Assembly: GCA_964035545.1 (NCBI GenBank)
Contig: OZ037769.1
Coordinates: forward strand, 8,475,929 to 8,539,928
Direction: 5' to 3'
Origin: Bugula neritina
Lineage: Eukaryota; Animalia; Bryozoa
DNA: 64,000 nucleotides
Shown: positions 43,101-46,100 of the stretch, in pieces
Layout of the letters: each line of letters begins with the position of its first letter
Numbering within the stretch: the first letter of the stretch is position 1
Translations under genes and position numbers: made by a program
Notes under the pieces: generated by a model
What the model saw: the letters and a program-made list of their open reading frames with translations, nothing else
What the model was told of the DNA's origin: nothing
Database searches by the model: none

Positions 43101-46100
43101 AGGGGTCGTATCAGAGTTAAGAATTCTGGATAGAGTTTGGCATCCACCACATAATTCTCTCCGGAGAAACAGCCCGTCGCCCGATTTCTGGTGACGGGGT
43201 AGGGGTAGATATCATTATATCCACAGGGGCAGAATGTGAGTAATAGGTGGGCGTTGACATGCAGCTTCAAGGAGCGGTGAGAGGCGCACTTCTCGTCACA
43301 AATCTGGCACCGCGTCCTTCCTTTGGATCCCCAGGCTGTTTCTATCTGCTCCTCTGTCTCCGGCGACACCCACGGCCAACGGCGGCGCAGCGGCTCGGGC
43401 CGGTCACCATTGGTGTACTCCTCATGATGTGGAGCGGGAAGTGCTCTATCCCGTACCCTGGTTGTAAGGGGTTGAGTGTAACCTGAAAGAGTTTCAACAG
43501 CGTTAGTATAATACACTGCCGTGTTGTCAGCTTAACCAGCCTGGCAACTTCTCGTTTAGTTACACTCGCAGAGATTTATGGTAGTGAATAGTCAGATAGA
43601 ACACGTATTGCAATGAGATTATAAAATCTCTAAGTCAAACTGAGTTCTTACCACGGTAGTTCACTAGCCTATCTCCAGCTCATTTGACTCAGTGAGTCTG
43701 AGCTGAGCGATGCAATCTAGTTTCCATATCAAGATATAGTTAACTCACCCCACGATCTGTTGTCGTAAGACATACTGAATTTGTGAAATGGTTTGGACTA
43801 CTGATTAGGAACATGTTTACTCTTGACTGCATCAGCGTATGAAAAGATCGAGCAACGTGGTTGGGGTGCGTGATTAAGACTTTGTGCACCCGGCGGATGA
43901 ATTTTGTTTCTACTTCCGCCGATACAAAAGTTAATATTTCCGCGGGGTTAACAACTCCCACATTTGCTCGATACTTTTCCCGTACGGTTTTCCCCCAGAC
44001 TTTCGTACGCGCCGCTTTTAATGCAGTCACATACGAAGTCCTTCAAGTATGCGGGGGGTTGCCTCGTACGTTGTCCCCGCTCCAGGGGAGGTGACGCACT
44101 CGTCGGTGTGTTAGTAGGGGCCTCTGGTGGCGTCTCTACTTCACCGTTAGTGGTCACTTCTTCTTGTTCTCCGGATGGAGCCCCTCCCACCGTGGGGGTT
44201 TGCACTTCCGGAACCGGCTCGGTTTCTGGAAGTGATGGAATTAGACTTGGCGGTGGCGGACGCGCTTCCGTTGGTAAAAGCGGTCGCTCATCTCTCACCA
44301 AGTCTTCCTCCCGCGAAATGACCACCTCGTATTCGGGTCCTTGCCGCCGTCGCCCACGCGTTGTTGTCTGCCTCCTGGGCTCCAACAATGGAGGGGCTTC
44401 TCCCGTTGGGTTGGGGCTAGCCCAGTACGGCTTCAAGCAAGACTCATTCTGGATACACAGGATAGTTAAGGGCATCCTCACTAAGAATATCATAAATTTC
44501 TCTCAAAATGTAGTTTAGGTTCTTGATTAATACTACTCTGCGGGTGGCATGCGTGTTGCCTACTTGCAATTGTTTAGCCTAAGCTCAAACTACAACCAAT
44601 AAGCAGCAACCTTCATTAGGGCTGCGTTATCTATCAACATTCCATTATAGGCGCTACATAAACAAAGTACAAAGCAAGCTATTCATTATAGCCTGCCAGC
44701 TAGCAAGCCTATAATTAGCATGTACGCGCCAATATCTTCTCATCCCTAAGTGCTCATTGAAGCGTGAAGCACTGCGCGCTGCTAATTTACTATGAAAAAA
44801 TATGGCATTTTCAGTGTATACATCACCAATTTGTGGGCAATCTAGAAGAGTTATTGGAAAAAGAAAAAAACTTACCCTGGAGAAATATCTCAGGATTCCA
44901 GCAGTGCAATTTTTATTCGGATATCATGCTTTGCTGCTGAGATATTTTACTGGTACTAAAAAGTCAGCTTTTCTGGCAAAATTGGCCAAAATTGGGCAGT
45001 TTTTTGTCTATAACTTTGCAAAAAAAATGAAAATTGAAATTTCCAAAAAAGTTACCCTGGAGAAAAAGAAGATCTACAGCATAGTTTTTAAATTTTGACT
45101 CTAGCACAATTAGGTGAGATTTTATTTTACTGGTACTGAATTCTTATATGATTACAATGCAAACCTCAGCAAGGCAGTTGCAGCTAAAAGGTTGCCCTTA
45201 ACTATCCTGTGTAGACACCTGTCCTGAGCGCTCAATCTTGTACGTATGGTTGGGCATCGCCTCGACGATCACGTAGGGTCCCACGAACTTAGGCTGTAGC
45301 TTAGCTGCCTGTCCGCGACGCCTACGGTAATTGACCATCCACAGCTTATCTCCCGTCTGGTAGAGGGGTGGTTCCTCGGAATCTTCGTGTCGCACCTTCC
45401 ACTGCTGTTCGCGCAGTATAACGTGTGCAACCTTCATCCGTTCCACTAGTCCACTAGTTCACTCGTGAATCGAGTTGTCTAGCTCTGGAACGTGGTAGGT
45501 GAGATGGTCAGGGACACGAGTCTCTCTCCCGAGCATCAAGAGGTTTGGGGTCTCACCAGTACTGGTGTGTGGAGTGCTACGGTATGCACGCATGACTTGC
45601 GGCAATACCGTGTCCCATTCCTCTTGACTGCGTCCGAGGAGAAGACTCCGGAGCGCATAACCTAGCATTCGGTTGTTGCGCTCCACCACCCCATTACCTT
45701 GGGGGTGGTAAGGGGTGGTCCTGGTCTGATTCACTCCCCAGAGGCGGCAAAGGTCGCTCATCAGTTGGGACTGAAACTGCGCGCCTTGATCAGAGTGTAT
45801 CTGTTCGGGAAGCCCGATATAACAGAATACATGTTGGTCTAGCGCCCTGGCCACTGTTGGGGCTGACGCATCTGGGATAGCCAGAGCGTCTGCCCACCTA
45901 GTAAAGTGGTCGGTCAGTACTAAGATCCAACTATTGCCTCTGGGGGTCAGGGGCATTGGTCCGACCAGGTCAACAGCTACCACTTGTCACGGCCTGCCAG
46001 CATGTAGCCTCCGCCCCATTTTGGGCCAATACCACCGGAGTTGCAATTTGGAGATCACTCTCTTGACTCCTGCGTGGGCCTGTTTGTAAGTGTCCCAAAT

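Follow-up and report, generated by a model that had tools for sequence, protein, structure and literature searches.

A retained sense-strand intron and a predicted zinc-finger ORF3 with a candidate gag splice junction in a Ty3/Gypsy retrotransposon family

How can a spliceosomal intron in the sense orientation be intact in two retrotransposed copies of one element, and what is the gene that lies behind it? The window that raises this question, the whole stretch of 64,000 nucleotides analysed here, holds two minus-strand copies of a single Ty3/Gypsy family, copy 1 at 50288-42168 and copy 2 running from beyond position 64000 to 57963 (its 5' end lies outside the window). In agreement with an earlier note on this DNA, which had called the copies independent, they are separate insertions because homology between them stops at the LTR ends, which rules out a segmental duplication as their source, because copy 1 is flanked by a 4-bp target duplication of its own (ATAT), and because the LTRs of copies 1 and 2 differ by 7.2-7.6%; those of copy 1 are 2.1% apart (6/291, two indels).

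Copy 1 carries the LTRs, primer-binding site, polypurine tract and target duplication of a Ty3/Gypsy LTR retrotransposon, and its pol domains follow the Gypsy order protease-RT-RNase H-integrase (Pfam). On the minus strand, the 5' LTR (49982..50288, TG...CA ends) is followed by the primer-binding site (49963..49980), presumably of the tRNA-Leu type, by gag (48995..49948, 317 aa, with 98 relatives and no match in a Pfam search), by a broken pol encoding the protease, RT, RNase H and integrase (43948..48935), by ORF3, by the polypurine tract (42459..42469) and by the 3' LTR (42168..42458). Gag ends (48995) before pol starts (48935) in another frame, an ORF at 49041-48706 spans both, and the end of gag carries GGGGTTAAAC, a possible frameshift site. 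Both copies are damaged. In copy 1, pol has first-frame stops at 46721, 45989 and 45461, a deletion near 46013 and an insertion at 44460-45203, and the ORF3 frame is broken by a 49-nt deletion near 43030; in copy 2, whose 3' LTR lies at 57963..58270 on the minus strand, ORF3 has a frameshift near 58608, and the tail of that long ORF differs from the C-terminus of the family. The insertion in the integrase end of copy 1 (44460..45203) is an inverted-repeat element of 744 bp, its terminal inverted repeats 19 bp long and its target TA; it is likely a high-copy MITE because it is deeply covered in all four sequencing runs. A third element in the window (4293-9680, minus strand) is a distant Gypsy with 66-73% DNA identity to the two-copy family in pol; it is heavily decayed and most of its gag is missing. 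Elsewhere in the window, a tandem repeat region (32170-32864) has long open frames on both strands, and likely host exons lie between the elements at about 3100-4200 on the minus strand, with a donor at ~4140 and coding-looking sequence at 3800-3600.

The short intron in front of ORF3 occupies 43483..43748 of copy 1 (minus strand, 266 nt), with a donor GG/GTGAGT at 43749/43748, a branch site TACTAAC at 43508-43502 and an acceptor TTTCAG/G at 43483/43482 that is also the acceptor of a predicted long intron starting in gag; its counterpart in copy 2 (59341..59605, minus strand, 265 nt) has the same splice signals, so that the strong sense GT-AG intron which the earlier note had seen intact in both insertions is indeed there. 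The features of a U2-type intron are all present (GT donor, branch site, pyrimidine tract and AG acceptor), the frame is restored across it, the three frames of 43748-43483 contain 8, 7 and 6 stops, and GC content is 0.40 in the copy 1 intron vs 0.56 in exon 2. When 43947-43300 was base-shuffled 5000 times, a strict splice layout never arose, and a loose one did so 38 times. Judged by these signals, 43748-43483 and its copy 2 counterpart 59605-59341 are a real spliceosomal intron. The intron is not specially conserved at the depth of the two copies, because it has diverged by 5.3%, as compared with 4.5% for pol and 6.6% for exon 2. A stable fold was not found in the short intron (z from -2.05 to 0.0 in copy 1 and from -1.29 to 0.84 in copy 2), and an Rfam search of 42100-50400 gave no match. 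At the end of pol, 44080-43961 and the corresponding 59900-59781 fold better than shuffled sequences in both copies (z -3.4 and -4.5); these windows lie in coding sequence and are a candidate RNA element inside the predicted long intron.

Retention of such an intron in genomic copies is ordinary and presents no anomaly, because unspliced genomic RNA is what is copied in retroviruses and LTR elements alike. Retroviruses and LTR elements are described as exporting and packaging unspliced RNA despite its splice sites (PMC10309623), RSV as packaging unspliced over spliced RNA by about 200:1 with the packaging signal on both (PMC5035971), and plant Copia elements as keeping a sense intron in full-length RNA (PMC5580714). 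The intron thus likely stays since new copies are as a rule made from the unspliced full-length RNA. To explain retention, the earlier note had proposed either selective export or packaging of unspliced RNA or an essential cis signal in the intron. The former agrees with the role of unspliced RNA as the usual template (PMC10309623, PMC5035971), but strict packaging is weakened by the protein P0027 discussed below; the latter has lost ground, being needless for retention and having no stable fold to go with it.

ORF3 comprises about 260 aa from two exons: a mini-exon (43749..43774 in copy 1, with the ATG at 43773, 8 codons plus 1 nt; 59606..59631 in copy 2, with the ATG at 59630) and exon 2 (42750..43482 and 58322..59340, respectively), all on the minus strand. 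Exon 2 encodes a C2H2-type finger, a second Cys/His motif, helices, a coiled-coil-like helix and an Arg-rich tail. Across 108 sequences the ligands of the finger C-x2-C-x12-H-x3-H are kept in 98, 92, 88 and 94%, and those of the second motif, C-x-C-x12-H-x3-C, in 98, 97, 99 and 94%. By sequence criteria the first motif is a C2H2 zinc finger because of this ligand conservation, of zf-C2H2-type Pfam matches (in 3 of 49 relatives, one of them at the cut-off) and of its Atlas neighbours. A C-terminal helix of 58 residues is predicted, and over 74 proteins, 18 residues of tail contain 7.3 Lys/Arg as against 0.04 Asp/Glu. The models of its structure are weak, with a mean pLDDT of 60 and 62; fold searches of PDB and BFVD gave no match at E<=0.001 and only weak C2H2 rows, a wide fold search retrieved only a generic long helix (Z<=6.5), and a sequence search of PDB gave no match. 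A transmembrane stretch is absent from all seven ORF3 proteins examined (best 19-residue hydropathy 0.45-1.24), which rules out an envelope gene of the errantivirus/Tor type, and no fusion-protein match was obtained with Pfam; the env-type splicing suggested by the earlier note therefore describes the position and splicing of ORF3 and not its product.

A single-sequence search with exon 2 gave 50 relatives and a profile search 157 (120 of them listed), and the ORF3 relatives form 121 representatives at 50% clustering, distant forms included. None of the matches listed has a name or a precomputed Pfam domain, and ORF3 is without a Pfam family of its own; locus scans of metagenome, viral and GTDB contigs found no relatives. 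Gag and ORF3 matches have eight contig sizes in common, six of these among the 22 gag contigs of at least 7 kb, which fits a linkage of the two genes in the same elements. The third element carries a broken ORF3 homologue (4552..5253, minus strand; tblastn of P0296, P0289 and P0277, E 3e-39 to 1e-28 over 5090-4552), and ORF3 is thus old in this lineage, because the relatives most like this homologue form a separate supported group in the tree. The N-terminal part of this homologue is longer, and the sequence in front of it revealed neither a strong donor nor a strong branch site; its route of expression may differ. In two relatives, P0251 (596 aa) and P0299 (499 aa), the finger domain is present twice; one of these proteins sits on a long branch, and they are possibly host-domesticated or duplicated forms of ORF3. 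Between copies 1 and 2, exon 2 has 16 silent and 11 replacement codons among 150, a modest purifying selection between two damaged copies. No description of this family was found in a search of the open literature; it may be annotated in Repbase or GyDB. The terms 'zinc' and 'ORF3' are absent from the text of PMC8556966, PMC6238403 and PMC8220671, and 'zinc finger' and 'C2H2' from that of PMC13524379. Intron retention being already known, the new part is the extra predicted zinc-finger gene with a captured gag junction.

This junction is found in P0027, a protein from a family 51% identical to that of the window. In the window, a gag leader exon of 14 codons plus 1 nt (49906..49948, minus strand) ends at a phase-1 donor, GAAG/GTGAGC at 49906/49905, after Gag residue 14, and the predicted long intron leads from there to the shared acceptor (49905-43483, minus strand). 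P0027 consists of the first 14 Gag residues followed directly by the first codon of exon 2; its N-terminus is identical to Gag P0106/P0156 at 14 of 14 residues, and it was the sole Gag-leader match when 252 ORF3 matches were compared with 99 Gags. The join is, at the protein level and in a relative, that of the predicted phase-1 splice 49906>43482, represented by 1 of 34 proteins. These 34 are the members of a set of 137 ORF3 proteins that reach the exon 2 boundary; 48 others are without the anchor used, and 55 start downstream of the boundary or are without the motif. In 33 of the 34, Ser/Leu is followed by Asp/Gly at the boundary, the residues expected from a retained YAG acceptor, gene callers reading into the intron wherever its frame is open; the one that departs is P0027. 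Furthermore, the codons of Gag G15 and E16 spell the gag donor. Among the 53 of 99 Gags that cover this region, G15 is kept in 46 and replaced by Ser in four more, and E16 is kept in 52; a Ser codon AGT would keep the GT of the donor. The neighbours of these two residues vary, and the Gag N-terminus is variable. Use of the gag donor in the lineage is supported at the sequence level because P0027 joins Gag 1-14 to exon 2 and because G15/E16 are kept. The second phase-1 donor in gag to which the earlier note had pointed is accordingly present, and apparently used in a relative. A three-exon protein running from gag over the mini-exon to exon 2 is ruled out, as the 26-nt mini-exon shifts the frame. 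Upstream of the zinc-finger region, exon 2 offers no ATG in frame, and without splicing the frame that opens at ATG 43773 runs into a stop at codon 15.

A spliced unit with both LTRs would measure 1,698 nt. That the P0027 contig exceeds this length, at 5,320 nt, suggests an integrated copy of spliced RNA; the contig may be DNA or RNA. Since internal rearrangements are ordinary in the family (P0144, P0145, P0150 and P0253, read by eye), P0027 may also have come from a plain deletion. Such a deletion or an assembly chimera, together with splice signals that would be relics of a captured host gene or chance motifs, makes up a very unlikely alternative. No spliced contig was seen in the runs examined, and rearranged copies do exist, as this alternative would have it; it has to face a strict layout absent from all 5000 shuffles, an acceptor reading kept in nearly all boundary-reaching relatives, donor codons kept in Gag, the same intron length in a relative 47% identical, and a P0027 join that falls on both predicted splice sites.

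The relative in question, P0030, opens at Val-Ser (GTG AGY) and has 88 codons, that is 265 nt, before the acceptor G, which equals the intron length of copy 2; short motifs shared with the translation of the intron were matched by eye, and tblastn of P0030 gave no significant match. The mini-exon donor and the gag donor both look selected from such comparisons, the former because P0030 keeps the 265-nt spacing with the donor; by analogy with EVD, the mini-exon donor might alternatively have a regulatory U1-binding role. The mini-exon is identical between copies 1 and 2 at 25 of 25 positions, and TCAGT, which the earlier note had correctly placed immediately before the ATG, stands directly 5' of both ATG 43773 and ATG 59630. 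A non-coding island (43818..43863, minus strand), 45-90 nt upstream of ATG 43773, is common to diverged relatives, as seen from a depth peak and short matching pieces in 4/4 runs; the matches of diverged contigs are confined to 43693-43782 and 43818-43863, beyond which these contigs run off. The mini-exon donor and this island look selected, on sequence comparison, because P0030 keeps the intron length and the diverged contigs match only there. The island is a candidate internal-promoter or RNA element, and, by analogy, an internal promoter would be the simplest use of the conserved mini-exon donor and island. None of the 137 ORF3 proteins starts with the mini-exon peptide.

No spliced RNA of the window's family was seen in the contigs of the runs examined. 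Among contigs of runs X1, X4, X7 and X10 across 43150-43960, none of the seven joints removes the intron, and no loose end at 43482 is among those listed. In X1, contigs run unspliced through the acceptor (43150-43562) and through the donor (43623-43780), a weak observation, as X1 is possibly the window's own source and contigs lose rare forms. In contigs of four presumed-RNA runs over 42470-50300, the joints 43482/49906 and 43482/43749 are absent among the 15 listed of 55; the intron and finger region is uncovered in two of these runs (X11, X13) and nearly so in X12, so that these contigs have no bearing on expression.

In the architecture itself, namely the intron, the ORF3 family, a shared acceptor and two donors (at gag codon 15 and at the mini-exon), we have high confidence. 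Our preferred reading of its function is more tentative and, in our estimate, falls a little short of an even chance: by analogy, ORF3 may be a Rev/CERV-like nuclear factor that exports unspliced element RNA. Early LTR transcripts would splice the gag donor to the shared acceptor and give a Gag-leader/ORF3 protein, default splicing would yield ORF3 first, and a second ORF3 message would start near the mini-exon and remove the 266-nt intron only. The fingers and Arg-rich tail of ORF3 would bind element RNA and its long helix would serve oligomerisation, and ORF3 would then favour export and packaging of the unspliced RNA; spliced RNA, keeping the primer site, the purine tract and both LTR ends, would occasionally be copied too, as P0027 may illustrate. 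C2H2 fingers more often bind DNA, which counts against an RNA-export role, as does the fact that no Rev-response-like fold was found in the short intron.

The same architecture would also serve a DNA-binding transactivator that acts from a weak internal promoter first and then turns on the LTR, on the model of the foamy-virus Tas feedback loop. We consider this possible, if on the unlikely side: the C2H2-type finger and dimer-type helix of ORF3 would suit it, as would the conserved mini-exon donor, the TCAGT before the ATG and the island upstream, but with an initiator at TCAGT the leader would be just 3 nt long, the sole junction found is the LTR-driven gag form, the mini-exon peptide opens none of the proteins surveyed, and the escape from splicing of RNA with such strong splice sites is left unexplained. 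Tor3b/4b use an internal promoter after pol and Tor3a splices from near the gag start (PMC4402516), and foamy viruses have both an internal promoter and tas (PMC7828637). It is distinctly less probable that ORF3 is an anti-silencing or host-interaction factor, directed at piRNA or chromatin silencing, with unspliced RNA leaving by a host pathway via a cis element. In favour of this, invertebrate LTR elements have accessory ORF3s of various kinds, some of them enzymes (PMC5408684), and a conserved non-coding island exists, but the searches revealed in ORF3 neither an enzyme domain nor a mimic of a host factor, and its fingers and Arg-rich tail suggest binding to nucleic acid.

A wider claim, which we regard as doubtful, is that ORF3 would be an old double-finger regulator unrelated to CERV, Rev and Tas, expressed by two routes and governing a switch from spliced to full-length RNA, with the message itself copied as a 1.7-kb mini-element; an animal Ty3/Gypsy lineage would then be 'complex' in the retroviral sense, its routes being the LTR/gag splice and the internal-promoter mini-exon. 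In the literature searched, CERV alone was found as an element-encoded answer to how env-less LTR retrotransposons bring unspliced RNA past nuclear quality control. ORF3 would join it as another candidate, unrelated to it, for which a junction is mapped and more than 150 relatives are found, and which is small enough for reporter assays; such a candidate would mean that regulation of the Rev or Tas kind evolved on more than one occasion outside retroviruses. Integrated spliced copies would directly gauge, from genomes, the strictness with which unspliced RNA is chosen.

Rev, Rem and Rec, like Tas, are small regulators made from spliced RNA; Pfam and PDB searches found no homology of ORF3 to them, and the window element, unlike retroviruses, is an env-less Ty3/Gypsy. 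The gene layout of ORF3 matches that of CERV in Cer1, a Ty3/Gypsy element of C. elegans (PMC10309623), and one of the criteria of the CERV family is seen in P0027, a relative of the window's family. CERV has 517 aa in five exons with C4 loop, H, M and G-protein-like domains and is reported from nematodes only (PMC10309623); ORF3, in contrast, combines a C2H2-type finger with a further Cys/His motif, its Gag leader has 14 residues, and a second donor is present. It is half the size of CERV, and its weak models show no G domain. Bdelloid LTR elements have an extra sense ORF after pol, said to be expressed typically from spliced messages, and these ORF3s are of GDSL esterase, DEDDy nuclease, transmembrane or coiled-coil types, unlike the zinc-finger ORF3 predicted here (PMC5408684, in whose text 'zinc' is absent). 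As described in PMC7828637 and PMC5035971, leader-type splicing of RSV env adds a short Gag peptide to a 3' ORF, as in P0027, and retroviruses prefer unspliced RNA as their genome (PMC5035971), as is proposed here. Tor3a of Oikopleura (PMC4402516) resembles the window's family in splicing a donor near the gag start to an acceptor before ORF3, and the internal promoter after pol of Tor3b/4b is a parallel to the putative mini-exon route. The Tor product is a membrane Env, unlike ORF3, and the two routes are used there in different elements (PMC4402516), whereas here both donors are present in one and the same element.
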